Shown here piece by piece: positions 12,835-61,738 of a stretch of 64,000 nucleotides of DNA; within the stretch, counting starts at the first letter, position 1; each line of letters starts with the position of its first letter. The position numbers were made by a program, and so were the translations under genes. The stretch comes from Minisyncoccota bacterium. Lineage in GTDB: Bacteria > Patescibacteriota > Minisyncoccia > Phycocordibacterales > Phycocordibacteraceae. The stretch covers positions 18,149 through 82,148 of the forward strand of contig JBAYHD010000001.1 of the NCBI GenBank assembly GCA_041666305.1, read 5' to 3'. Below the pieces are notes generated by a model that was not told where the DNA came from, did not search any database, and saw only the letters and a list, made by a program, of their open reading frames with translations.

Positions 12835-13440
12835 ATGTCTCTCTTCATCTCAAACCTCATCGGCGGCGGCGCTGCAGGCAGTGTAGCGCTCCTCACGCTC
12901 ATCATCATTATCGGCGTGATATTGCTCGAAGACACGACGACGGTCATCGTCGGCATGCTCGCGGCCGACGGCGTTCTCGGAGTTCCCTTCGCCCTTTCTT
13001 CGCTCTACGCCGGCATCGTGATCGGCGATCTTGGACTCTATTTCCTCGGGTACCTCGCAAGCACCAACGCCCGACTCGCGCGCTACGTGGACCATGATTT
13101 TGTCGCACCTTTCCGGGCATGGCTTGAGAATCGTTTCGTGCTTACGGTCTTTTCTGCCAGGTTTATTCCCGGTTCGCGCCTCCCCACCTACACCGCAAGC
13201 GGGTTTTTTCGCTCCCCACTCTCTACTTTCATCATAACGGCAACTATCGCAACTTCCGTTTGGACGACGTTCCTTTTCACCGCTTCGTACTGGTTCGGCA
13301 ATTTGACCGCCGGATGGCTGGGGCACGCACGCTGGGGCATCGCAGGCGCATTTCTCATCGCACTATTCTTTATCGGACGGCACAATCTCCTCGCATACCG
13401 CGCTAAGAAGGACGAGATGCGTGATATCGTTCAAAAATGA
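12835..13440 (+). CDS. DedA / SNARE-associated (VTT domain) family membrane protein
   Basis: LYFLGY...FIPGSRLPTYTASGF (DedA signature region). ORF-track start 12799 is GTG; ATG at 12835 is preferred. Confidence 0.6.
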   Translation: MSLFISNLIGGGAAGSVALLTLIIIIGVILLEDTTTVIVGMLAADGVLGVPFALSSLYAGIVIGDLGLYFLGYLASTNARLARYVDHDFVAPFRAWLENRFVLTVFSARFIPGSRLPTYTASGFFRSPLSTFIITATIATSVWTTFLFTASYWFGNLTAGWLGHARWGIAGAFLIALFFIGRHNLLAYRAKKDEMRDIVQK

Positions 13441-14354
13441 GAACGAGAATAATCCGTGCGGGCGTAGCCTTGGTGCTTGCGCTTGCTGCAGGCGGTGTTG
13501 GATACACAGCTAGCAGTGGAGGAACGCAAGTCGCGAGTGTCAACGTTCCCGCACAGACAGTCTCGGCACCGGCCGCAAACTCCGTACGTGTCGTTTACAG
13601 TTTGGACCAAAAACAAAACGATAGAGAAATCATCGCGCTCATCGACGCGGCGAAGGACCATGTTTATTTCGCGATATACACCTTCACTCTTCCCTCTATT
13701 GCCGACGCGCTCGTCGCAGCGAAAAAACGCGGAGTGGATGTGCGCGGCATCGTCGATTCGGGGCAGAGCCGCGACAGCTACGGCAAACCGATTATCACGA
13801 AGCTCCTCGCCGCCGGCATCTCGGTCGTCACCGAGAAGCATGCGACCGGTAATGGCATCATGCATATCAAGACACTCGTCACCGAATCGGCGTATGCGAC
13901 CGGCAGTTATAACTGGACGAATTCTGCGACGACCATCAATGACGAAGTGCTCGAGATCGGCACCGATCCGGCACTCCGACAAGCGTATGAAAACATATTA
14001 AAGAAACTTTTGGACGCCTACGCAGGCAACACCGCGGCCGCTAACGCGGCCGCGCCTGTTTCCATCGGCACCATCGACTACACTGATGCCTCAGCGCACG
14101 TGGGCGACCTCGCATCCGTGCGCGGCACGCTCGTAAAAGCCTATACCTCGGCCTCCGGCACGGTCTTCCTCGACTTCTGCAAAAACTATAAGACCTGTCC
14201 CTTCTCGGGCGTCATCTTCGCCGACGATGCGAAGCAGTTCGACGACTTAGCAAAGCTCGCCGGCAAGACAATAACCCTCACCGGCAAGATCAGTTCGTAT
14301 CAAGGCAAGGCCGAAATCGTCCTCTCTGACCCGAGCCAACTTACTTCTCTTTAG
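13437..14354 (+). CDS. phospholipase D-like (HKD motif) domain protein, secreted/anchored
   Basis: 305 aa. N-terminal signal/anchor, HIKTLVTESAYATGSYNWTNSA (HxK(x)4D(x)6GSxN), then a C-terminal beta-rich domain ending ...KISSYQGKAEIVLSDPSQLTSL. Confidence 0.65.
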   Translation: MRTRIIRAGVALVLALAAGGVGYTASSGGTQVASVNVPAQTVSAPAANSVRVVYSLDQKQNDREIIALIDAAKDHVYFAIYTFTLPSIADALVAAKKRGVDVRGIVDSGQSRDSYGKPIITKLLAAGISVVTEKHATGNGIMHIKTLVTESAYATGSYNWTNSATTINDEVLEIGTDPALRQAYENILKKLLDAYAGNTAAANAAAPVSIGTIDYTDASAHVGDLASVRGTLVKAYTSASGTVFLDFCKNYKTCPFSGVIFADDAKQFDDLAKLAGKTITLTGKISSYQGKAEIVLSDPSQLTSL

Positions 14355-14665
14355 GCTTGTGCTTTTTCAAGATGCCGAATACGGCGCTCATGATTAACAA
14401 TCGCAACGGCATCCTTATCCGTTGCTCGAGCGATACCATCAAGAGTTTCTTTTATGTCCTCAACTCCGTTTTCAAGAGAGCCCGTTCGTTTTTCAAGTGC
14501 AGTCATTCGATACTCGACACCATCAAGTCGATTTTCAACGCCATCGAATCTGTCTTCGACTTTAGCAAACCCCGTTTGGACAGCGTCAGCCAAGTCTTGA
14601 ACGGCACTCATGACATTCGCGATGGTCGGTTCTTTAATTACTTTGGATTTCTCCACCTTTTTCAT
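14351..14665 (-). CDS. small coiled-coil protein (hypothetical), convergent cargo gene inserted at the PLD-like gene 3' end
   Basis: 104 aa. Internally repeated RFDGVENRLDGVEYRMTALEKRTGSLENGVEDIKE heptad-like motifs. Flanked by two copies of the PLD gene 3' end. Confidence 0.45.
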   Translation of the reverse strand: MKKVEKSKVIKEPTIANVMSAVQDLADAVQTGFAKVEDRFDGVENRLDGVEYRMTALEKRTGSLENGVEDIKETLDGIARATDKDAVAIVNHERRIRHLEKAQA

Positions 14666-14712
14666 GCGCTTACTTTATCACACCTCGAGAAGGATACGGG
14701 TGTGTAAAACTC

Positions 14713-14738
14713 GAAACCCCGCCTTTCGGCGGGGTTTC
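14713..14738. terminator. perfect 11-bp GC hairpin (gaaaccccgcc-tttc-ggcggggtttc) with T-tract on the minus strand, in the 5' region of the inserted coiled-coil gene
   Basis: Inverted repeat read directly. Function (terminator for convergent transcription or 5' structure) uncertain. Confidence 0.4.
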
Positions 14739-14814
14739 TCGGAGCCTTGCGGCACTTTGTGCGGTCAGTACAGCATGCACGCAGATGCGTGCAAGCATGC
14801 ATGTATGAATAGCT

Positions 14815-14888
14815 CTCACCGGCAAGATACCTCGTATCAAGGCAAGGCTGAAATCGTCCTCTCCGACCCAAGCCAGCTCTCGCATTGA
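14815..14888 (+). repeat. degenerate duplicate (~85% identity) of the PLD-like gene 3' end (14277..14354), including its own stop codon (SYQGKAEIVLSDPSQLSH*)
   Basis: Direct alignment of 14277-14354 against 14815-14888. Also preceded by a GCATGCACGC..GCGTGCAAGCATGC palindrome at 14773-14806. Confidence 0.8.
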
Positions 14889-14967
14889 CGCAACACGACT
14901 GTCGTGCTTTACTGTAGTTCGCAAGCAGTTCCCTCAATAATCGTTTCATCACCGCGAAGGAGGCATC

Positions 14968-15471
14968 ATGTCCGAAGTGAAATTGCTTCTCCCGAAATTC
15001 CTCACGAAAGAAATCGTACTTACGGCCATGCGTTCAGTCGGAAGTATTGCAGTGGGAGCGTTCCCGCTCAAACGAAACACATTCCACACTGTTCTGATTG
15101 CTCCAGCAATGGAGTACGAAGCCGACCGCTACCCGAATCATCCGATTCAGCCGGTCGTGATTGCAGAGCTCAGCCATGGCAACAAAAGCGAGTGGTCGCA
15201 CGATTACGCCAACATCGCGCAGTGCAAGACTCTTCAGCTCTGGCACGGCCGCAACGACGGCGGTACCGACGCGAAACCTCACCTCCTCATGGAGGGAGAC
15301 ACTCCCTTCTGGGGTGGTGTGTGGCGGGATGGCCTTGCGTCTGGCTGCTCGGGTGTGCAATCCCACTTTGATCGGATGATTGCCGGGATGGTCGTCGATG
15401 CGGCAGTCGCGCTAGCGTACGACGCCTGCATCGCTTGGTGCGTCCAAAACCCCGATGCCGATTTCGTCTGA
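14968..15471 (+). CDS. hypothetical protein (weak resemblance to GlcG/HbpS-like DUF336)
   Basis: 167 aa. Strong SD gaaggagg 5 nt upstream of the ATG. ...GGVWRDGLASGCSGVQSHFDRMIAGMVVDAAVALA. Confidence 0.35.
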   Translation: MSEVKLLLPKFLTKEIVLTAMRSVGSIAVGAFPLKRNTFHTVLIAPAMEYEADRYPNHPIQPVVIAELSHGNKSEWSHDYANIAQCKTLQLWHGRNDGGTDAKPHLLMEGDTPFWGGVWRDGLASGCSGVQSHFDRMIAGMVVDAAVALAYDACIAWCVQNPDADFV

Positions 15472-18116: not shown

Positions 18117-19181
18117 TCATTTCGCGGTTGACACTAGTTCAATCGTAAATGTTGCGGACTGCCCACCCTTAATTGATGTGTCCCTATCAAGCCAGTATCC
18201 CATGCGAGTTTTAAAAGTGACTTTTCTCACGCCTCCGACCCTCATCCCTATGACTCCTAATCGGTACGAATAAAAGTCGTCGCCCTTAATAGTCTCGAGG
18301 CTTAATATTCCTTGAATGGGACGTGAAGGTGCACTGTCATCAGTCTTCCCGTCTACTGTGGAGCTCAAAATTGTGAATGTGGCATTATCGCCATATTTTG
18401 CTACTGCCCCATCTCCAATTTTCACATCGGAAATATTTCCCATTGGGAAGTAGGGATAGTTTTCATTTCCCGCAGGGAGATTCTGCCCGCTAACCAGATT
18501 AATATTTTGACTCAAGAACATTTCTTGATCGACTTTCTTACTTTCTGCTTCATGGACGATCTTGTCGCTTCTGCAGGCATTTCTGCGAGCGCTGTACAGA
18601 TAGGCATCACATTTATCGATAGACACAAACACGTAATCGTAACTGTTATTGATCCCGAACAAATGATCTCCCGTTAACAAGTCTTGTTTTACCAGTAGAT
18701 CGTTGGAATCTGCATACGCCACGCCAGTAGAGAGGATGAGCAATAACAGCCCCAAAGTCAGCAGCGACCCCCTACCAAGCATCGACAGCTTTTGAGTTAC
18801 TGCATATACTCCTGCCGCAAGAATAAACACTATCGTGATCTCAGTCATCTGTCCCCAAAAGAACATCCCAAGTGTGCCAAAACCAACAGGAATAAAGGTG
18901 AGTATTGCGACCACAGCTAAAATTAAAAGCTCTGTCTTCCAGATTATTTTCAGGAAATCTAGATGGGAGGACATAACGGCCAAAACGAGACACACTAGGA
19001 GGTAAAAGACATAGGCTCCTACTGTTAAGGTCGTGGGAGTAAATCCATCCAGTCCAAGGACTGGAGAAGCGCGATAGTCGAAAAGGAAAAACGAGACAGT
19101 AGAATACAATCCTACAAGACTGAGGGCTCTTATCGCTACCAGTAACAGATTTGCATCTTGAGGATCAGTTTGCGGTTCCAT
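18117..19181 (-). CDS. polytopic membrane protein with C-terminal soluble beta-rich domain (weakly FKBP-like)
   Basis: ~8 TM helices. C-terminus reads RLGVIGMRVGGVRKVTF...ATFTIELVSTAK. ORF-track start 19313 (TTG) would translate through a perfect hairpin, so ATG 19181 is preferred. Confidence 0.4.
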   Translation of the reverse strand: MEPQTDPQDANLLLVAIRALSLVGLYSTVSFFLFDYRASPVLGLDGFTPTTLTVGAYVFYLLVCLVLAVMSSHLDFLKIIWKTELLILAVVAILTFIPVGFGTLGMFFWGQMTEITIVFILAAGVYAVTQKLSMLGRGSLLTLGLLLLILSTGVAYADSNDLLVKQDLLTGDHLFGINNSYDYVFVSIDKCDAYLYSARRNACRSDKIVHEAESKKVDQEMFLSQNINLVSGQNLPAGNENYPYFPMGNISDVKIGDGAVAKYGDNATFTILSSTVDGKTDDSAPSRPIQGILSLETIKGDDFYSYRLGVIGMRVGGVRKVTFKTRMGYWLDRDTSIKGGQSATFTIELVSTAK

Positions 19182-26735: not shown

Positions 26736-26774
26736 TATCCCCATTTTGACCCGGTCGGGTCATTATTGGGATAC
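26736..26774. repeat. 39-bp imperfect-palindromic element, copy 1 (TATCCCCATTTTGACCCGGTCGGGTCATTATTGGGATAC); perfect 16-bp inner palindrome TGACCCGGTCGGGTCA
   Basis: 100% identical to 27379..27417. Flanks the wHTH/PaaX-like gene. Confidence 0.9.
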
Positions 26775-26795
26775 GTGGTTTAGTATGATTAAGCG

Positions 26796-27377
26796 ATGGG
26801 GACAGTTGAAGTGGGGGCAAAAATAAAAAGAAGAAAGAGAGATCTGCGGAGTGCAGCGCTCATCACCATCGGTTTGGCCGGGACTATCGCCGTCGCCGCC
26901 GTTGCACCAAACATGTTCCAGCTCCTCGGAAAGACCGGTCTACTTACCCGTCTTAAGTATCGCAGTAAGGGAGTACTCGCTCGATTGAAGTACAAAGGCG
27001 AGATCGAATTTGTAGAAAAGAACGGGAAGAAATATGTACGACTAACCGACAAGGGTGAAAAAATGTTGGATCTCAATCGCGAGAAATTAAATCTAACGAA
27101 CAAGAAACCGAAAAGGTGGGATCGCCGATACCGGCTGGTCATGTTCGATATACCGGAGAAACGGAACAACATCCGCAAGCTCTTACGTTTTGAGATGCGG
27201 GAGATCGGTTTCTTGCGTATACAGGACAGCGTCTGGGTCTACCCTTTTGATTGCGAAGAGTTCATCACACTCCTTAAGGCGGACTTGCGGGTTGGTAAGG
27301 ATATTCTCTACGCAGTTGTAGAAGAAATAGAAAACGACAAGTGGATCCGCAAACACTTTAATCTACCCCTTAAATAA
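26796..27377 (+). CDS. PaaX-like winged-helix regulator family protein with Cas2-like beta-alpha-beta-beta motif (paralog 1)
   Basis: 193 aa. N-terminal hydrophobic helix, wHTH-like KYKGEIEFVEKNGKKYVRLTDKGEKML, then RWDRRYRLVMFDIPEKRNNIRKLLRFEMREIGFLRIQDSVWVYPFDCE. This pattern matches PaaX (WDGxWxLVxF...R..LRxxLxxxGFgxLQxSVWV) and the Cas2 YDV...KRR...G.RVQNSVF signature. Convergent with the r-protein genes. Confidence 0.55.
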   Translation: MGTVEVGAKIKRRKRDLRSAALITIGLAGTIAVAAVAPNMFQLLGKTGLLTRLKYRSKGVLARLKYKGEIEFVEKNGKKYVRLTDKGEKMLDLNREKLNLTNKKPKRWDRRYRLVMFDIPEKRNNIRKLLRFEMREIGFLRIQDSVWVYPFDCEEFITLLKADLRVGKDILYAVVEEIENDKWIRKHFNLPLK

Positions 27378-27378
27378 C

Positions 27379-27417
27379 TATCCCCATTTTGACCCGGTCG
27401 GGTCATTATTGGGATAC
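27379..27417. repeat. 39-bp palindromic element, copy 2 (identical to 26736..26774); similarity continues ~15 bp beyond (GTGGTTT(A)GTAT)
   Basis: Direct comparison. Confidence 0.9.
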
Positions 27418-35032: not shown

Positions 35033-35072
35033 AAAAACACACAACCGCCTCTGCGGGCGGTTGTGTGTTTCT
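35033..35072 (-). terminator. intrinsic terminator, hairpin family ACACACAACCGCC-loop-GGCGGTTGTGTGT (minus strand followed by UUUUUGA); downstream of PaaX-like paralog 2
   Basis: Perfect 13-bp stem. A near-identical copy is at 36117..36156. Confidence 0.65.
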
Positions 35073-35088
35073 TGCTAATTACCATCGT

Positions 35089-35126
35089 GTTCGTTAATTC
35101 TAACGACCGTTGGAGATAACGAACAT
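35089..35126. repeat. 38-bp palindromic element GTTCGTTAATTCTAACGACCGTTGGAGATAACGAACAT (termini GTTCGTTA/TAACGAAC), copy A, 3'-flank of paralog 2
   Basis: Shares conserved termini and centre (28/38 identity) with copy B at 35745..35782. Confidence 0.75.
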
Positions 35127-35129
35127 TGG

Positions 35130-35744
35130 TTACTCTACTAGCGGGAGATTAAAATGCTTGCGGAGTTTTTCGTCGTGTTCTATCTCATCAGCGACTATAC
35201 AGAGAATACCGTGACCAAGTTTTAGATGCGTGCGCAAAAAGACAAGGAGTTTTTCACACGGATATGGATATGCCCATGCACTGTTCTGTACCTTAACGAA
35301 GCCGATTTCTCTGAGCGTCTCTCGTAATTCGTCACGCACTTCCCGTCGCCGCTCCCACACATCAAACATGATAATCCGCCACTTCTGATCCCATTTCTTC
35401 TGATTTTTAGGCCGCACTTCTTCGCGCTCTGCAAGTTCTTCGGCAATCTTCATCCCCTTCTCTGTTAGCTCTATATGAAAGCCGTTTTGCCCCTTCACTC
35501 GCCGAAATATACCCTGTTTAATCAGCTCAGAATATTTTTGACTCACGCGCCTCTTAAGACGAGGCGAAGGCCCAATGACTTTCTCTACATATTTGAGTAG
35601 TCTCACTGCGTTCGGCGCCATAACTATCAGACCTACTCCAATCGTGAGATACGCCGAGAGCAAAACAGCATTTTTAATTTTGGTGCGCTTTGTCCCGCGC
35701 TGAACCCTCTCCTCAATATTCAAGAGCCGTTTCTTTTTCTCCAT
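35130..35744 (-). CDS. PaaX-like wHTH regulator family protein with Cas2-like motif (paralog 2)
   Basis: 204 aa. GQNGFHIELTEKGMKIAEEL (wHTH wing), KKWDQKWRIIMFDVWERRREVRDELRETLREIGFVKVQNSAWAYPYPCE, C-terminal ...DEKLRKHFNLPL shared with paralog 1. Clearly homologous to 26796..27377. Confidence 0.55.
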   Translation of the reverse strand: MEKKKRLLNIEERVQRGTKRTKIKNAVLLSAYLTIGVGLIVMAPNAVRLLKYVEKVIGPSPRLKRRVSQKYSELIKQGIFRRVKGQNGFHIELTEKGMKIAEELAEREEVRPKNQKKWDQKWRIIMFDVWERRREVRDELRETLREIGFVKVQNSAWAYPYPCEKLLVFLRTHLKLGHGILCIVADEIEHDEKLRKHFNLPLVE

Positions 35745-35782
35745 GTTCGTTATTGTACACGGTCGTTGGACTTAACGAACAT
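35745..35782. repeat. 38-bp palindromic element copy B (GTTCGTTATTGTACACGGTCGTTGGACTTAACGAACAT), abutting the start codon of paralog 2
   Basis: Direct comparison with 35089..35126. Confidence 0.75.
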
Positions 35783-35890
35783 AGGATGTGTACAAATATG
35801 GGAGCGGAGCGTGGCCTCCTCTGCCCTACCCCGCCCAAAGATGCAAGAAAACAACCGGGGTCGCGAGTGATTTGCTCGCAACCCCGTATT

Positions 35891-36082
35891 TCAGCTGCAT
35901 CCGTGCGGCGAAGGCCGACCAATCGGATGTTTCTCGATTTCATCACCCATTTCTGCCCAGTAACAATCGGCATGCACCGCAACCTTTTGACCTTCGACGA
36001 CAATGTACTCCAACTCCCCTTCAATATGTGGTCCGTCGATTAAATCATGACATATGCCGCAATAAACCGAACTTAGATCCAT
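35891..36082 (-). CDS. small Cys/His-rich (zinc-ribbon-like) hypothetical protein
   Basis: 63 aa from ATG 36082: MDLSSVYCGICHDLIDGPHIEGELEYIVVEGQKVAVHADCYWAEM. SD aaggaggg upstream. Confidence 0.45.
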   Translation of the reverse strand: MDLSSVYCGICHDLIDGPHIEGELEYIVVEGQKVAVHADCYWAEMGDEIEKHPIGRPSPHGCS

Positions 36083-36116
36083 GATTAAGCCCTCCTTTCT
36101 GCAGGCGAGTCTAGCA

Positions 36117-36156
36117 TAAAACACACAACCGCCCGTGAGGGCGGTTGTGTGTTTCT
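36117..36156 (-). terminator. second copy of the ACACACAACCGCCC-gtga-GGGCGGTTGTGTGT hairpin terminator, ~140 nt downstream of rpsJ
   Basis: Near-identical to 35033..35072, including flanking TTCTTG(G/C). Confidence 0.65.
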
Positions 36157-36299
36157 TGGCTGTCTTTGGAATTCTAGCGGTTTCAAAACTACTGTAGATG
36201 CTAGGCGCGACGAGAGAATTTCTGGAGACGTACTCAAATGTACGGCGGAAGAAGTTCTCGAAGTCGCAACAACGCAGATGCAGTAGTTTTGGAAGCGCG

Positions 36300-37966: not shown

Positions 37967-38009
37967 CCTGCCCCGTAGCCAAGCATTCCGATGCTTGTGG
38001 TACTGGGGT
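37967..38009. repeat. imperfect long hairpin element CCTGCCCCGTAGCCAAGCATTCCGATGCTTGTGGTACTGGGGT in the tuf 5' region; second copy (with a 72-bp internal insertion) at 61621..61738
   Basis: Direct sequence comparison. Contains AAGCAT-TCCG-ATGCTT inner hairpin. Confidence 0.6.
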
Positions 38010-38183: not shown

Positions 38184-38417
38184 TTACGCTTTCTTCTCGG
38201 CTTTCTTCTCTTTGGCCTTCTTTGCCTTGTTTTTCTTGACCTTGGCTTTGGCGGTCTTAGCTTTGGCAGCCGGTTTGGCGGCATCGGGCTTGGCCTTGGT
38301 GTCGGCAGCGGCGAGCATCGTCTGGCCGGACTGGTTGGTCGGCGAGGCAGCAATGGCCGGCAGCGCGAGAGCGAAACACGCAATCATCGAACAGAACAAA
38401 AGGGCTATCTTTTTCAC
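38184..38417 (-). CDS. small secreted Lys/Ala-rich protein (hypothetical)
   Basis: 77 aa, GTG start with strong SD (gaaggagg). Signal peptide MKKIALLFCSMIACFALALPAIAA, then KAKPDAAKPAAKAKTAKAKVKKNKAKKAKEKKAEKKA. Confidence 0.5.
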   Translation of the reverse strand: MKKIALLFCSMIACFALALPAIAASPTNQSGQTMLAAADTKAKPDAAKPAAKAKTAKAKVKKNKAKKAKEKKAEKKA

Positions 38418-38496: not shown

Positions 38497-38565
38497 GCAC
38501 AACAGCCGCCCTCCGGGCGGCTGTTGTGCCGAAAGTTAGGACACCCGGTGTCCTAACTTTTTACT
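38497..38565. terminator. two tandem perfect hairpins (gcacaacagccgccc-tcc-gggcggctgttgtgc; aagttaggacac-ccgg-gtgtcctaactt+tttt)
   Basis: Inverted repeats read directly. The second has a + strand T-tract. Confidence 0.45.
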
Positions 38566-38602
38566 TGCGAGATGCGATGATGTCGGCGGCAACGTTGTTC
38601 GG

Positions 38603-38750
38603 TGGTGTGCAACACCAGGTGTTGAACAAAATTATTTGCGGGATGCGATGATGTCGGCCGCGACGTTGGTGGGGACCACGTCGTAGTGATTGAACTCCAT
38701 CGTCATACTGCCGCGGCCTTCGGTCATGGAGCGAAGCGTGGTGGCGTAGA
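38603..38750 (-). repeat. degenerate duplicate (~80% identity) of the fusA 3' end plus its terminator hairpin (original 39200..39350); includes an in-frame remnant of the last ~39 codons and stop; an additional nested partial copy at 38567..38602
   Basis: Direct alignment: ...gtgtgcaacaccaggtgttgaacaaaattatttgcggg(a/a)(t/g)gcgatgatgtc... occurs at both loci. Confidence 0.8.
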
Positions 38751-38785: not shown

Positions 38786-39145
38786 ATGAATATCCTCATC
38801 GCAGTTCTCGGACTGTTTGCAATCGATTACTATGGGTTGCGTTCATATTTGAGTCAGCGTGGCAAACCTACGGAAGGTTTAACAAAAAATATCTTACTAG
38901 CCTATAAAGACACCGCCGCCTGCGGGATTGCAGTTTTGCTTATCTCACTACCATTCTTCCTCGTTGATACTGGTGCCCCACGACCCTATGCCGAGCTGCT
39001 TTCGATGGCTCTTTGGGGTGCGGGATTCGTCCTACCTCTACCCTTCTTCATAAAAAAGAGAGTTAATATTCCTTGGTTGACTGCGATTGGTTTTATCTTT
39101 GGTCCATTGGTTTTTATTTTGCCTGCACTGTACGCAACCTTTTAA
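38786..39145 (+). CDS. small 3-4-TM membrane protein (hypothetical), convergent cargo between fusA and its duplicated 3' end
   Basis: 119 aa. [26 protein letters not shown]...[37 protein letters not shown]. Confidence 0.45.
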
Positions 39146-39229
39146 ACAACTGCAGCAAACTCAAACGGAAAGCGGCCGCCCTCTCGGGTGGCCGTTGTAC
39201 TGGTGTGCAACACCAGGTGTTGAACAAAA

Positions 39230-41377
39230 TTATTTGCGGGAGGCGATGATGTCCGCGGCCACATTAGTAGGAACTACATCGTAGTGGTCAAACTCCATCG
39301 TCATCGAGCCGCGGCCTTCGGTCATGGAGCGGAGAGTGGTGGTGTAGCCGAACATTTCGGAAAGCGGAACTTTCGCCTTCACGACTTTGTTGAGACCTCG
39401 TTCTTCCATTCCCTCGATTTGTCCGCGTTTGCCGGAGAGATTACCCGTGATGTCGCCCATGAATTGGTCCGGAATAATGACTTCCACTCGCATAATCGGC
39501 TCAAGGATGACGGCCTTTGCTTTGCTTGCCGCTTCTTGAAATGCCATGGATGCCGCGATTTTGAAAGCGATTTCTGAGGAGTCCACATCGTGGTATGAGC
39601 CGTCGTAAAGGTCGACTGAGATATCCACCATCGGGAAGCCGGCGAGGAAGCCTCGCGCCATGGCCTCGCGGAGACCTTTCTCGATTGGCGAGATGAATTC
39701 CTGAGGAATGACGCCGCCTTTGATGTTATTGATGAATTCGAAATGGTCTTCGCGCGTAATATTTTTCGCGACCTTCTTCTCCGAATCTACCGGTTCCATC
39801 TTCTTCATCTTGATCTTCACATGACCGTACTGGCCGCGGCCGCCGGTCTGCTTGATGTACTTCCCTTCCGCTTCCGAAGAACCCATAATCGTTTCGCGAT
39901 ATGCCACCTGCGGCTTTCCCACATCCGCAACGACGTTGAACTCGCGCTTCATGCGGTCCACGAGGATTTCGAGGTGCAATTCGCCCATGCCGGAAATAAT
40001 CGTTTCATTCGTCTCTTCGTCGGTCTTGATGCGGAACGTCGGGTCTTCGTCGGAAAGTTTGCGGAGCGCAATGCCCATTTTCTCCTGGTCGGCTTTGGTC
40101 TTGGGCTCGATGCGGAGCGACACCACCGGTTCAGGGAATTTAATTTCCTCGAGCACGATAGGATTTGCCTCATCACAGAGCGTGTGCGAAGTTTTCGTAT
40201 CTTTGAGACCCACTGCGGCCGCGATTTCTCCGGTAAACACCTGTGCGACTTCTTCGCGCTTGTCGGCTTGCAAGCGAACGATGCGGCCGACGCGTTCCTT
40301 GGAACCCGTCGTTGAGTTGTATACATACGAGCCGGCGGTGAGTGTGCCTGAATACACACGGAAGAAAGTCAGCGCGCCGACAAACGGATCGGTCTGGAGT
40401 TTGAATGCCATCGCGCAAAACGGTTCATCATCTGACGCATGACGCTCAACCGGTTCATTCGTCTTCGGGTTTATGCCGGTGACGGGCTTGAGGTCCAAGG
40501 GCGACGGGAGATAATCCACGACCGCATCAAGTACGAGCTGTGCGCCTTTATTCTTAAGGGCAGAACCGGTGTACACCGGGAACACTTCGTTCGCGATGAC
40601 CGCCTTGCGCAAAATCGCCTTCAACTCATCGATGTTCGGCTCTTTGCCTTCGAGATACGCACCCATCGCCGCATCGTCTTGCTCCACAATGCGCTCAATG
40701 AGTTCGGCGCGGTACTTCTTCGCGTCTTCAAGGAGATTCGCGGGAATCTCGCCCTCTACCACCTCTTCGCCCATGTTGCCGGTAAAGGTGTATGCCTTCA
40801 TCGTGAGCAGATCCACGCAACCTTCATGCTGTGCCTCTTCTCCGATAGGAATTTGCATGCGAATGGCCTTCGGCGAGAGCCGGTCCAAAATGCTTGCATA
40901 GGAACGCTCAAATGACGCTCCTATGCGATCCAATTTATTGATGAAGCAAACACGCGGCACCGCGGCTTCGTCGGCATAACGCCAGTTTGTTTCGGACTGC
41001 GGTTCCACGCCGGCCACGCCGTCAAAGACGACAACCGCACCGTCGAGCACGCGCATGGAGCGCTTCACTTCTGCCGTGAAGTCGATGTGTCCGGGGGTGT
41101 CGATGATATTGAAACGATATTTCTTGGAGATATCCTTCTTGTCTTTCTCAATCGTTTTTGTCCAGAAGCAGGTAATGGCGGCGGCGGTGATGGTGATGCC
41201 GCGCTCGCGCTCTTGTTCCATCCAGTCGGTGGTCGTTTCTCCTTCGTGCACTTCACCGATCTTGTGTTGGGAACCTGTATAGAAAAGGATGCGCTCGCTG
41301 ACAGTGGTCTTGCCGGCGTCAATGTGCGCAATGATGCCGAAGTTCCTGACCTTCTCGAGTGGATAGTCTCTGTTCAT
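39230..41377 (-). CDS. fusA: elongation factor G
   Basis: 715 aa. NFGIIAHIDAGKTTVSERILFYTG... Confidence 0.97.
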   Translation of the reverse strand: MNRDYPLEKVRNFGIIAHIDAGKTTVSERILFYTGSQHKIGEVHEGETTTDWMEQERERGITITAAAITCFWTKTIEKDKKDISKKYRFNIIDTPGHIDFTAEVKRSMRVLDGAVVVFDGVAGVEPQSETNWRYADEAAVPRVCFINKLDRIGASFERSYASILDRLSPKAIRMQIPIGEEAQHEGCVDLLTMKAYTFTGNMGEEVVEGEIPANLLEDAKKYRAELIERIVEQDDAAMGAYLEGKEPNIDELKAILRKAVIANEVFPVYTGSALKNKGAQLVLDAVVDYLPSPLDLKPVTGINPKTNEPVERHASDDEPFCAMAFKLQTDPFVGALTFFRVYSGTLTAGSYVYNSTTGSKERVGRIVRLQADKREEVAQVFTGEIAAAVGLKDTKTSHTLCDEANPIVLEEIKFPEPVVSLRIEPKTKADQEKMGIALRKLSDEDPTFRIKTDEETNETIISGMGELHLEILVDRMKREFNVVADVGKPQVAYRETIMGSSEAEGKYIKQTGGRGQYGHVKIKMKKMEPVDSEKKVAKNITREDHFEFINNIKGGVIPQEFISPIEKGLREAMARGFLAGFPMVDISVDLYDGSYHDVDSSEIAFKIAASMAFQEAASKAKAVILEPIMRVEVIIPDQFMGDITGNLSGKRGQIEGMEERGLNKVVKAKVPLSEMFGYTTTLRSMTEGRGSMTMEFDHYDVVPTNVAADIIASRK

Positions 41378-60597: not shown

Positions 60598-60679
60598 GAG
60601 TAGGACTACCTTACCACGCCTTGCTTAAACGCGCAAGTGTCGCAGAATGAAGTGCGCACAATATTGTTATACTTTCCCT

Positions 60680-61615
60680 ATGAATGCTGAGGCCGCAAAA
60701 CGCCAATTCCTTGAATACATAGAGATAGAGCGCGGGCGCGCGGTGAAGACTATCGAGAATTACGACCGCTACCTCACTCGCTTTTTCGAACAGATGAAAA
60801 TCAAGAATGTCGGGGACATCACCGAACAGAACGTCCGCGAATTCCGCCTCTGGCTCAACCGTCAGAAAGGCACGACGCACCCCAAAGGGGCCCCTTCGGG
60901 GATGAAGCGTCGCACCCAGAACTACTACATGATTGCGCTTCGCGCATTTCTCAAATTCCTCCGCAAACGCGATATCGAAGCCATTTCACCGGAAAAGATA
61001 GAGCTCGCGAAGCTCCCCGAACGCCAACTTGATCTCATCACGCCCGCGGAACTGGAACGGCTTATGAAAGCGCCCGGCGAAGCCTACAAGAAAGAGCCCG
61101 ACGAGGATAAAAAGCTCCATTACCTGCGCGACAGCGCCATTCTTGAACTACTCTTCTCCACTGGCCTGCGCGTGTCCGAGCTCTGTGCGCTTAACTCTGA
61201 TATGGACCTATCGCGCGATGAATTATCAGTACGAGGAAAAGGCGAGAAAGTGCGCGTTGTATTCCTCTCCCCTGCCGCGAAAGAAGCCGTGCGCGATTAT
61301 TTGAAAGTCCGCAAAGATATGGAGGAAGCATTATTCGTGGACGGCCGGCCGAACGCGCCTCATCGCATAACTCCGCGCGACATCCAGCGACACTTAAAGG
61401 GCTACGTCGCCCGCGCCGGCATCACGAACGTCGTGACGCCTCACACGCTCCGCCACGCCTTCGCCACCGACTTGTTATCGAATGGTGCGGACATCCGCAG
61501 TGTCCAACAGCTCCTCGGCCACGCCTCCATCAACACCACGCAAATTTACACGCACATTACGGATAGTCATTTGCGAGAAATACACAAGAAGTTCCATGGT
61601 CGGAATCGTAGTTAG
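60680..61615 (+). CDS. xerC: tyrosine recombinase XerC/XerD-like
   Basis: Core-binding N-domain, then C-terminal HTLRHAFATDLLSNGADIRSVQQLLGHASINTTQIYTHI (R..H.R..Y catalytic residues). ATG 60680 preferred over 60647. Carries a GC-palindrome insertion at 60880..60901 (HPKGAPSGMK). Confidence 0.85.
   Translation: MNAEAAKRQFLEYIEIERGRAVKTIENYDRYLTRFFEQMKIKNVGDITEQNVREFRLWLNRQKGTTHPKGAPSGMKRRTQNYYMIALRAFLKFLRKRDIEAISPEKIELAKLPERQLDLITPAELERLMKAPGEAYKKEPDEDKKLHYLRDSAILELLFSTGLRVSELCALNSDMDLSRDELSVRGKGEKVRVVFLSPAAKEAVRDYLKVRKDMEEALFVDGRPNAPHRITPRDIQRHLKGYVARAGITNVVTPHTLRHAFATDLLSNGADIRSVQQLLGHASINTTQIYTHITDSHLREIHKKFHGRNRS
60880..60901. repeat. GC-rich palindromic element copy (CCCCAAAGGGGCCCCTTCGGGG) embedded in-frame in xerC-like gene
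   Basis: Same motif as 52737..52758 and 53079..53102. Confidence 0.7.
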
Positions 61616-61620
61616 CGAGA

Positions 61621-61738
61621 CCTGCCCCGTAAGCAAAGCTTTCTCTCTGCGCTCATTCGGGAATATTGAAGTCAGACTTCAATTTCTCCTCATTCGCTTG
61701 ATAGTAGCCAAGCATTCTGATGCTTGTGGTACCGGGGT
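61621..61738. repeat. second copy of the CCTGCCCCGTA...GTAGCCAAGCATTCTGATGCTTGTGGTACCGGGGT element (see 37967..38009) split by a 72-bp insert containing a TTGAAGTC-A-GACTTCAA palindrome
   Basis: Direct comparison. Confidence 0.55.

Follow-up and report, generated by a model that had tools for sequence, protein, structure and literature searches.

Duplicated 3' ends of core genes in a Candidatus Kaiserbacteria genome suggest serial displacement by incoming gene cassettes

In the window analysed here (the whole stretch of 64,000 nucleotides, positions 18,149 to 82,148 of contig JBAYHD010000001.1), a gene for a PLD-family nuclease appears to end twice: its last codons recur downstream, with a stop codon of their own, beyond a small convergent gene. 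The host is a tiny-genome groundwater bacterium, Candidatus Kaiserbacteria, of the Candidate Phyla Radiation (CPR). How does a core gene in such a genome come to possess two ends, and which of them is the original one? The answer towards which we lean is serial 3'-end displacement, in which a homologous crossover within the conserved gene end would be combined with an illegitimate join on the far side. The parts of the nuclease locus are as follows, in window coordinates.

13437..14354, plus strand: PLD-family (NucT-like) nuclease gene, 305 amino acids (aa), a conserved core gene whose end would serve as the anchor
14270..14354, plus strand: functional 3' end of the nuclease gene (copy A), terminus ...SQLTSL and stop, from repeat search and gapped alignment
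14808..14888, plus strand: remnant (copy B), read as a displaced older nuclease end, terminus ...SQLSH and stop as in many orthologues, with a 1-nt frameshift near 14829
14351..14665, minus strand: gene for a 104-aa coiled-coil protein, the cargo, from the listing of open reading frames (ORFs); its stop overlaps the nuclease stop
14674..14682, minus strand: putative extended -10 box of the 104-aa gene, TGTGATAAA, read from the sequence about 8 nt before the ATG
14968..15471, plus strand: gene for a 167-aa hypothetical protein with no family match, a patchy further cargo of the nuclease-infC hotspot described below

The nuclease protein matched PLDc_2 in Pfam at 6.9e-23, and its NucT matches in NCBIfam fell below the cut-off. 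The repeat search of the window returned two blocks, 14295-14341 against 14832-14878 (47 nt, 91%) and 14270-14290 against 14808-14828 (21 nt, 90%), which gapped alignment merged into one copy of about 81 nt with a single 1-nt indel near 14829. The preliminary description of this DNA had reported a recurring gene end with its own stop, and between the two ends a convergent minus-strand ORF, an 11-bp hairpin and a palindrome; all of these were found again (ORF at 14351-14665, hairpin at 14713-14738, palindrome at 14776-14793), the core of the repeat being 91% identical. A match of 43 in 47 core positions is expected about 2e-12 times by chance in 64 kb (binomial estimate). Copy B closes with its own stop (...SDPSQLSH), both ends encode the conserved residues SYQGKAEIVLSDPSQL alike, and the longest identical runs between them measure 14-17 nt. 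Within the 48-nt core, every difference between the copies is a synonymous third-position change, an outcome in which the peptide is left unchanged and which random-substitution simulations produced in just 0.15% of cases. A diversity-generating retroelement was considered and rejected, the five core differences (C/T, T/C, G/A, A/G, T/C) being all synonymous and not confined to adenines.

With a metagenome-assembled genome (MAG) as the source, the repeat might be a chimera created during assembly or binning, and the preliminary description had itself named an assembly error as a possible cause. Positions 14300-14900 of the window are, base for base, identical in three assemblies from three accessions (JGI, ENA, Logan), so that the duplication is not an assembly error, and homologous structures exist in many other genomes. 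We consider an artefact scarcely credible.

The preliminary description had looked to the locus in relatives for a check. We compared the 80 closest loci in reference genomes (Candidatus Kaiserbacteria/Paceibacterota MAGs, cited by number as L001 and so on), in which nuclease orthologues lie between a VTT-domain gene and infC. Among the 69 loci holding both the nuclease gene and infC, 43 are in a no-cargo state, with 33-121 nt (mostly about 45) between the nuclease stop and the infC start. The 26 others have a spacer of 0.27-2.6 kb occupied by varied cargo: the 167-aa hypothetical protein, PemK-like genes, ParE/antitoxin and nucleotidyltransferase-like pairs, large surface proteins and ORFans. 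The closest relative, the sister-like L001, has an empty site of 33 nt, and occupied or module-bearing genomes are scattered over the PLD+infC tree (a quick neighbour-joining tree of two proteins). The empty site of L001, together with this scatter, identifies the nuclease-infC spacer as a hotspot of gain and loss. The 167-aa gene follows the same patchy pattern and is present in L004, L009, L014, L016, L018 and L046 only. A second hotspot lies upstream of the nuclease gene, where the spacer to the VTT-domain gene (region 13437-13440 of the window) is likewise variable in relatives (L001, L004, L011), ranging from a few-base overlap to about 1.7 kb.

What, then, are the hairpin and the palindrome that stand between the 104-aa gene and copy B? 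Comparison across loci assigned them to the following elements.

14713..14738, no strand assigned: 11-bp hairpin, predicted bidirectional terminator of a PemK-like toxin/small-RNA module, from covariation across aligned loci
14738..14766, minus strand: body of the small-RNA-like unit, including a GCC-GCAA-GGC tetraloop hairpin at 14744-14753, from a recurrent 20-mer
14767..14794, minus strand: degenerate small-RNA promoter with -35 TTGCAC (14789-14794), a 16-nt spacer and TGcTGTACT (14767-14775), from a cross-locus consensus

Positions 14706-14795 align with L004 and L011, and the 20-mer CTCGGAGCCTTKCGGCACTT, in which K is G or T and yields a minus-strand GCAA or GAAA tetraloop, is present in more than 119 metagenome stretches, this count being a lower bound. 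Of the 107 informative metagenome loci among the matches listed, 83 have hairpin and motif directly 3' of a PemK-like gene. This gene, of about 129 aa with the terminus ..KLKSFL and stop, matches PemK_toxin in Pfam (2.5e-9) and 'MazF-like growth inhibitor' in PHROG (5e-17). The conserved block that follows it reads, on the opposite strand, as a sigma-70-type promoter (consensus TTGACT-N16-TGCTATACT), then a short conserved stretch with a GCC-GNAA-GGC hairpin, then a 10-bp hairpin and TTTCGAGTTT. This last hairpin is 98.9% paired over 99 aligned loci among the matches listed, with compensatory changes at 7 of 10 pairs; none of 500 shuffles reached its pairing and covariation, and slid controls did not come close either. 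The invariance of the 20-mer was imposed by the search itself, whereas the promoter, the hairpin and the gene association were not. A promoter scanner flagged the small-RNA promoter in L129 (10/12 matches, TG-extended), and the hairpin of L115 was flagged by a scanner as a minus-strand terminator. The promoter scan of the window did not flag the small-RNA promoter, the -10 of which has decayed to TGTACT, with G at position 2. The location of the conserved block after the toxin gene indicates that the 'GC hairpin' is a shared terminator of the toxin gene and of a convergent small-RNA-like unit, the latter being predicted from the promoter and terminator consensus and from covariation.

The palindrome at 14776-14793 falls within the spacer and the -35 of the small-RNA promoter, in its Kaiserbacteria variant. 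These two parts form a near-perfect 18-bp palindrome, TGCACGCATATGCGTGCA, also found in L110, L115, L189 and L197, which looks like a candidate operator of some repressor.

The PemK-like toxin gene itself is absent from the window. The full module, of about 560 nt, occurs widely in CPR metagenomes, at more than 119 loci (e.g. L129:100-660 and L115:1690-2200). In its canonical loci the toxin gene has just a promoter of about 35 nt upstream and, downstream, the convergent small-RNA-like unit of about 55 nt, with its own promoter, GNRA-tetraloop hairpin and covarying terminator; no protein antitoxin gene, as a type II toxin-antitoxin (TA) system would have, was found next to the toxin gene in these loci. 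An Rfam search of the module at gathering and permissive thresholds gave no family, just terminator-like noise. PemK-like gene and convergent small RNA may represent an undescribed type of TA system with an RNA antitoxin, for which they are candidates. In one case, L201:715-837, a LOOT RNA (Rfam RF03000, 83.8 bits) directly adjoins a PemK/small-RNA module.

The history of the nuclease locus can be read from where this module stands in relatives. The order nuclease, PemK-like gene, hairpin with small-RNA unit, nuclease remnant was found in L004, L011, L115, L110 and L197. The remnants in these five loci show lineage-specific truncations or internal deletions, yet they have one common junction sequence, which points to a founding event that brought the toxin/small-RNA module together with a second gene-end copy of about 80 nt. 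Elsewhere the toxin slot is filled by a ParE/antitoxin pair (L119, L189), by HicA/HicB (L124) or by the 104-aa gene (the window, L216/L217), and these replacements are all encoded on the other strand from the nuclease gene, directly adjoin its stop and keep the hairpin wholly or partly. The preliminary description had attributed the PLD duplication to the gain of the 104-aa gene. This attribution is most probably wrong: hairpin and palindrome belong to the PemK-like toxin/small-RNA module, which occupies the same site, with the remnant, in the five loci above. To judge from this comparison, the duplication was most likely made by the PemK module and not by the 104-aa gene, which appears to have taken the slot of the toxin gene later, as the ParE and HicAB pairs did in relatives.

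The remnants themselves carry further information. That of L216 is still in frame (LTDKISSYEGKAEIVLSDPSQLSH and stop), so the frameshift in the window represents later decay. The window and L216 share an unusual functional terminus, ..L(T/S)S(L/P) and stop, and have the same cargo family, the 104-aa gene of the window being 80% identical to its counterpart in L216/L217. The terminal codons therefore seem to travel with the cargo, which suggests that the two are linked. In L119 the native infC leader lies directly 3' of the remnant, as expected if the remnant is the original end of the recipient in its original context. The remnants of L189 and L216 keep an open frame and a stop; they differ in amino acids from the resident end (in L189, VSYEGRAEIV for the resident end and SFYHGKAEII for the remnant) and resemble the ends of other lineages.

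Homologous exchange could in principle account for all this on its own, each scar going back to one ancient event and being propagated by vertical descent and by allele swaps via flanking core genes. The single junction sequence in all PemK-linked PLD remnants indeed speaks for one founding event, and the patchy distribution of islands fits presence/absence alleles swapped via the PLD and infC flanks. But L007 has an independent PLD scar with a different junction and cargo, scars exist at four other genes, and two events are stacked at fusA (see below). We give this explanation little weight.

The replacing cargo of the window differs from its surroundings: the 104-aa segment has a GC content of 0.46-0.47, whereas that of the flanks is 0.55-0.60. 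The layout of the putative -10 box of the 104-aa gene recurs in the cassettes that replaced the toxin gene in L119, L124 and L189. We found 27 homologues of the 104-aa protein in other contexts, for example after a TPR gene or between rplB and rpsS. Those between rplB and rpsS (L211:2946-3327; L214:1863-2992) adjoin a duplicated rplB 3' end. Neither Pfam nor PHROGs nor NCBIfam assigned a function to the 104-aa and 167-aa proteins or to the 119-aa protein introduced below; they returned just weak coiled-coil noise.

Is the nuclease locus an isolated case? The preliminary description had named fusA, in the same window, as a first instance of a duplicated gene end, and the repeat was confirmed there at 87% identity, accompanied by a third, shorter copy.

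39201..39347, minus strand: functional 3' end of fusA with 29 nt downstream (copy 1), from repeat search and alignment
38603..38749, minus strand: displaced fusA end (copy 2), from codon-wise comparison with copy 1
38561..38602, minus strand: displaced fusA end (copy 3), the last 13 codons and stop (42 nt), from its native context
38786..39145, plus strand: cargo of the fusA site, a 119-aa membrane ORFan convergent with fusA, from the ORF listing

Copies 1 and 2 show 21 differences in 40 aligned codons, 15 of them at third positions; they change 3 amino acids, where random substitutions would be expected to change 14. The fusA ends encode the same conserved residues, ...MTMEF(D/N)..., and the 29 nt after the stop are identical in copies 1 and 2. 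The hairpin that follows copy 3, AAAGTTAGGACAC..GTGTCCTAACTT (38532-38560), is the one found directly after the fusA stop in the uninterrupted L220, which identifies copy 3 as the native fusA end; with copies 1 and 2 stacked upon it, at least two rounds of displacement are implied. The 119-aa cargo protein has no homologue but itself among 5.8 billion proteins. In five relatives with EF-G 94-95% identical, the fusA-tuf spacer measures 0.25-2 kb and holds different cargo, and L222/L223 possess a 31-nt fusA remnant of their own. Between the displaced fusA ends and tuf lies a gene for a 77-aa lysine/alanine-rich, lipoprotein-like protein (38184-38417) with no family match, probably an older cargo of the fusA hotspot.

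In order to search for such scars at other genes, we performed a self-comparison (blastn, E = 1e-3) over 1.31 Mb of related loci, retaining repeats of 30-400 nt that are 150-4000 nt apart. It returned at least 59 direct-repeat pairs, with a copy on the 3' end of a long ORF in 23 and on the 5' end in 11; the scan is limited in sensitivity, its ORF calls are mechanical, and it missed the PLD repeat itself, so these counts are lower bounds. Scars at rplB carry a HigB/HigA-like pair, which sits between two rplB ends (L214), or a gene of the 104-aa family (L211). A scar at rplT carries a ParE-type pair (L013), and those at an RNase-J-like gene carry PaaX/Cas2-like genes (L022, L051), HicAB (L052) or a 189-aa gene (L018). 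The PemK, PaaX-like, HicAB and 104-aa families thus recur at different genes, each with that gene's own sequence duplicated, and the duplications measure between 31 and about 150 nt. Duplicated left-flank sequence likewise brackets PemK modules elsewhere, at unrelated sites: 9 of 60 loci score >=30, whereas the highest score in mismatched controls (n=300) is 29. The proposal that cassettes are gained recurrently at gene 3' ends is upheld by fusA here and by fusA, rplB, rplT and the RNase-J-like gene in relatives; the process is not specific to this genome, and the cargo, described as a single convergent gene, is elsewhere not always convergent or single.

Two PaaX_M/Cas2-like genes also lie in the ribosomal-protein gene cluster of the window, encoding 193 aa (26796-27377) and 204 aa (35130-35744). 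Both are bracketed by direct hairpin repeats, at 26736-27417 (39 nt, 100%) and 35034-36158 (41 nt, 93%). In L022 and L051, it is duplicated ends of the RNase-J-like gene that enclose their homologues, and L224 has one between rpsG and fusA; the family acts as mobile cargo. Another hairpin-containing repeat of 35 nt (94%) occurs at 37975-38009, upstream of tuf, and at 61704-61738, just after a gene for a Xer-like recombinase, where its left arm has apparently been split off by an insert of about 80 nt.

The divergence between functional end and remnant was examined by codon position. In ten cases with coding overlap, differences fell at positions 1/2/3 in the numbers 17/12/51 (51 of 80 at third positions), a skew with chi-square p = 5e-8 against a uniform distribution and p = 0.001 against the 46% of third positions expected under decay of one copy. 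The two versions of an end hence differ in the manner of alleles from different lineages, as the preliminary description had envisaged, mostly at third codon positions. This result bears on a simpler scheme, in which slippage or unequal crossing-over first made a tandem duplication in situ, the cargo then entered between the copies and the downstream copy decayed neutrally. Slippage can yield short direct repeats at gene ends and terminators, and some of the repeats are perfect, such as 26736/27379 (39 nt, 100%). Apart from the third-position excess over one-copy decay, this scheme is at odds with the remnants of L189 and L216, which are in open frame and resemble the ends of other lineages at the amino-acid level, with the lower GC content of the cargo segment, and with the different downstream contexts of the three fusA ends. 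We find it quite improbable, and simple tandem slippage, which the preliminary description had allowed for, is disfavoured by both the codon-position pattern and the remnants.

A more serious competitor is site-specific integration, by which small elements, using a tyrosine or serine recombinase supplied in trans or since lost, would target the 3' ends of conserved genes, as phage 21 and e14 do at icd and as islands do at tRNA genes, the two copies being attL and attR. The topology is the same as that of attL/attR with a replacement end carried by the element, fusA copies 1 and 2 share an identical block of 41 nt at the stop and downstream of it, a Xer-like recombinase gene lies within the window, and PemK modules frequently adjoin tRNA genes. 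In the window itself, ARAGORN and Rfam (gathering thresholds) found no tRNA or other known RNA gene over the 64 kb, so that tRNA-linked integration does not apply here. In none of the inspected islands, which are 0.3-2.6 kb long, was a recombinase gene found; the same cargo families (PemK, PaaX-like, HicAB, 104-aa) occur at different targets, bracketed each time by the target's own sequence; the duplications, from 31 to about 150 nt long, do not share a fixed length; and the longest identical run at PLD is just 17 nt. When viral contigs were searched for the motif, four hits emerged, all due to chance: they lay in GC-rich coding DNA and had no hairpin. On balance, site-specific integration seems possible but unlikely.

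How could displacement by one-sided recombination have built the nuclease locus? Incoming DNA from a related lineage would have brought its own nuclease end of about 80 nt, followed by the PemK/MazF-like toxin gene with the convergent small-RNA unit. At the left junction, a homologous crossover within the conserved gene end would have served as the anchor, and at the right junction an illegitimate or microhomology join would have been placed ahead of the gene end that the recipient already had. The gene would thereby keep its essential part whole, and the old end would be pushed downstream and left as a remnant. A second event of the anchor-mediated kind, now accompanied by deletion, would then have exchanged the toxin gene for the 104-aa coiled-coil gene and added the new terminal codons (..TSL and stop), leaving behind the terminator hairpin, the small-RNA body and a decaying promoter. 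Repeated rounds would pile old ends downstream, as with the three ends of fusA.

The combination of one-ended homologous recombination and an illegitimate join could arise through homology-facilitated illegitimate recombination (HFIR) during natural transformation, or through one-ended break repair; the enzymology is what we infer from the products. The right-hand junctions show no extended homology. Where the ORFs of PLD-infC islands were listed, none was found to encode a recombinase, and the same holds for the remaining islands examined; the genes that lie between the repeats, both in the window and in the related islands inspected, are those of TA proteins, PaaX-like proteins, coiled-coil proteins and ORFans. 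If the joint fell beyond the anchor, recipient DNA would be deleted, as in classical HFIR, which would fit the ParE, HicAB and 104-aa swaps at the hairpin base; if it fell before the recipient's gene end, the old end would be kept, via interchromatid integration or one-ended break repair. Transformation of Streptococcus pneumoniae can cause duplications through interchromatid integration (PMC3784515). In Patescibacteria, competence and pilus genes are prevalent, and acquired genes include those for ribosomal proteins and tuf (PMC12455944).

Several observations weigh against displacement. We identified no genome that carries the exact incoming segment and could be the donor, and the recombination steps are read from their outcome in the sequence. 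Since classical HFIR usually deletes recipient DNA, a duplication can be explained only with something added, such as an interchromatid join or one-ended break repair. Ordinary homologous replacement of the functional end after an in-situ duplication could likewise produce the third-position bias. In the 48-nt comparison, copies A and B have similar identity to most of the 80 orthologues; L004 agrees with copy B at 46/48 positions and with copy A at 43/48, and L001 gives a tie (43/43). The 41-nt block of fusA has the look of a recombination core or of a gene-conversion product, and the Xer-like tyrosine recombinase encoded at 60647-61615, 46 kb off, could act in trans.

Serial displacement has parallels in several known systems. 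Orphan arrays of type VI secretion systems (T6SS), Rhs and contact-dependent inhibition (CDI) have been proposed to arise by HFIR-based displacement (PMC5361080). Rhs loci, CdiA-CT/CdiI and Vibrio T6SS arrays have, as here, a conserved upstream anchor, an incoming new 3' part with a linked gene, and older 3' parts that stack. At our loci too, older ends are stacked downstream and the oldest stands in its native context (fusA copy 3, compared with L220, and the PLD remnant of L119). Unlike in these arrays, the genes concerned here are core genes (the nuclease gene, fusA, rplB, rplT), the payload is a separate selfish cassette (a TA system or small ORF), and the displaced ends encode the same protein sequence instead of variable toxin tips with an immunity gene. 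HFIR has been described in Acinetobacter, Streptococcus pneumoniae and Pseudomonas stutzeri, as referenced in PMC5361080. It resembles our case in joining one homologous anchor with one illegitimate joint and capturing foreign DNA beside conserved sequence, and it agrees with the deletion-linked exchange of the toxin gene for other cassettes. In the HFIR outcomes described from experiments, insertion was mostly accompanied by deletion, whereas the founding events here duplicated the distal part of the anchor.

Two further systems produce replaced gene ends. Phage 21 and e14 insert into the 3' end of Escherichia coli icd by means of an integrase and provide an element-borne replacement end. As at our loci, the gene remains whole, its new end differing slightly and for the most part synonymously from the old one, which persists as a pseudo-fragment beyond the insert; unlike at icd, there is here no integrase and no phage gene, inserts measure 0.3-2.6 kb, one cargo family occurs at several targets and the repeats are variable. 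In Allomyces atp6 (fungal mitochondria), a mobile ORF brings a foreign C-terminal segment and the native end is left as a downstream pseudogene. The order of gene, foreign end, ORF and native end is the same as here, and one-sided repair is the proposed cause; the Allomyces ORFs are break-making DNA endonucleases, whereas the cargo here includes no evident DNA endonuclease, the PemK, ParE and HicA families being annotated as toxins and not as homing endonucleases.

Integrons likewise are hotspots of small, often TA-type cassettes bounded by hairpin-forming sequence; unlike theirs, the cassettes here have their own promoters and lie in either orientation. An integron cassette was rejected as an identity for the module, there being no intI and no attC R''/L''/L'/R' architecture, and the hairpin being a perfect 10-11-bp stem with a short loop and a T-rich tail. 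On its other strand the hairpin has a sigma-70-type promoter upstream, and its stem covaries as in an ordinary terminator. A limited search of the literature found no description of 3'-end displacement with TA-type cassettes at CPR housekeeping genes.

A bolder extension, which we regard as distinctly unlikely, is that CPR bacteria harbour a recombinase-free cassette-exchange system, in which selfish modules (the PemK-like toxin with its RNA partner, PaaX/Cas2-like genes, TA pairs) carry along conserved core-gene ends and terminator hairpins that act as movable arms of homology, and the modules' own nucleases could promote their spread. If this were true, core operons such as str, S10 and infC-rpmI-rplT would be where accessory genes of these minimal genomes chiefly land. 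The toxin/small-RNA module is widespread, and no Rfam family matches it. A displaced core-gene end with synonymous divergence constitutes a searchable signature of gene gain, countable across thousands of genomes, which can date and order insertions and reveal donor lineages. CPR/Patescibacteria have very small genomes with few recognisable mobile elements, and the scars bear on how they gain accessory genes: they suggest that genes are gained through recombination anchored in conserved gene ends, with core operons as the hotspots.

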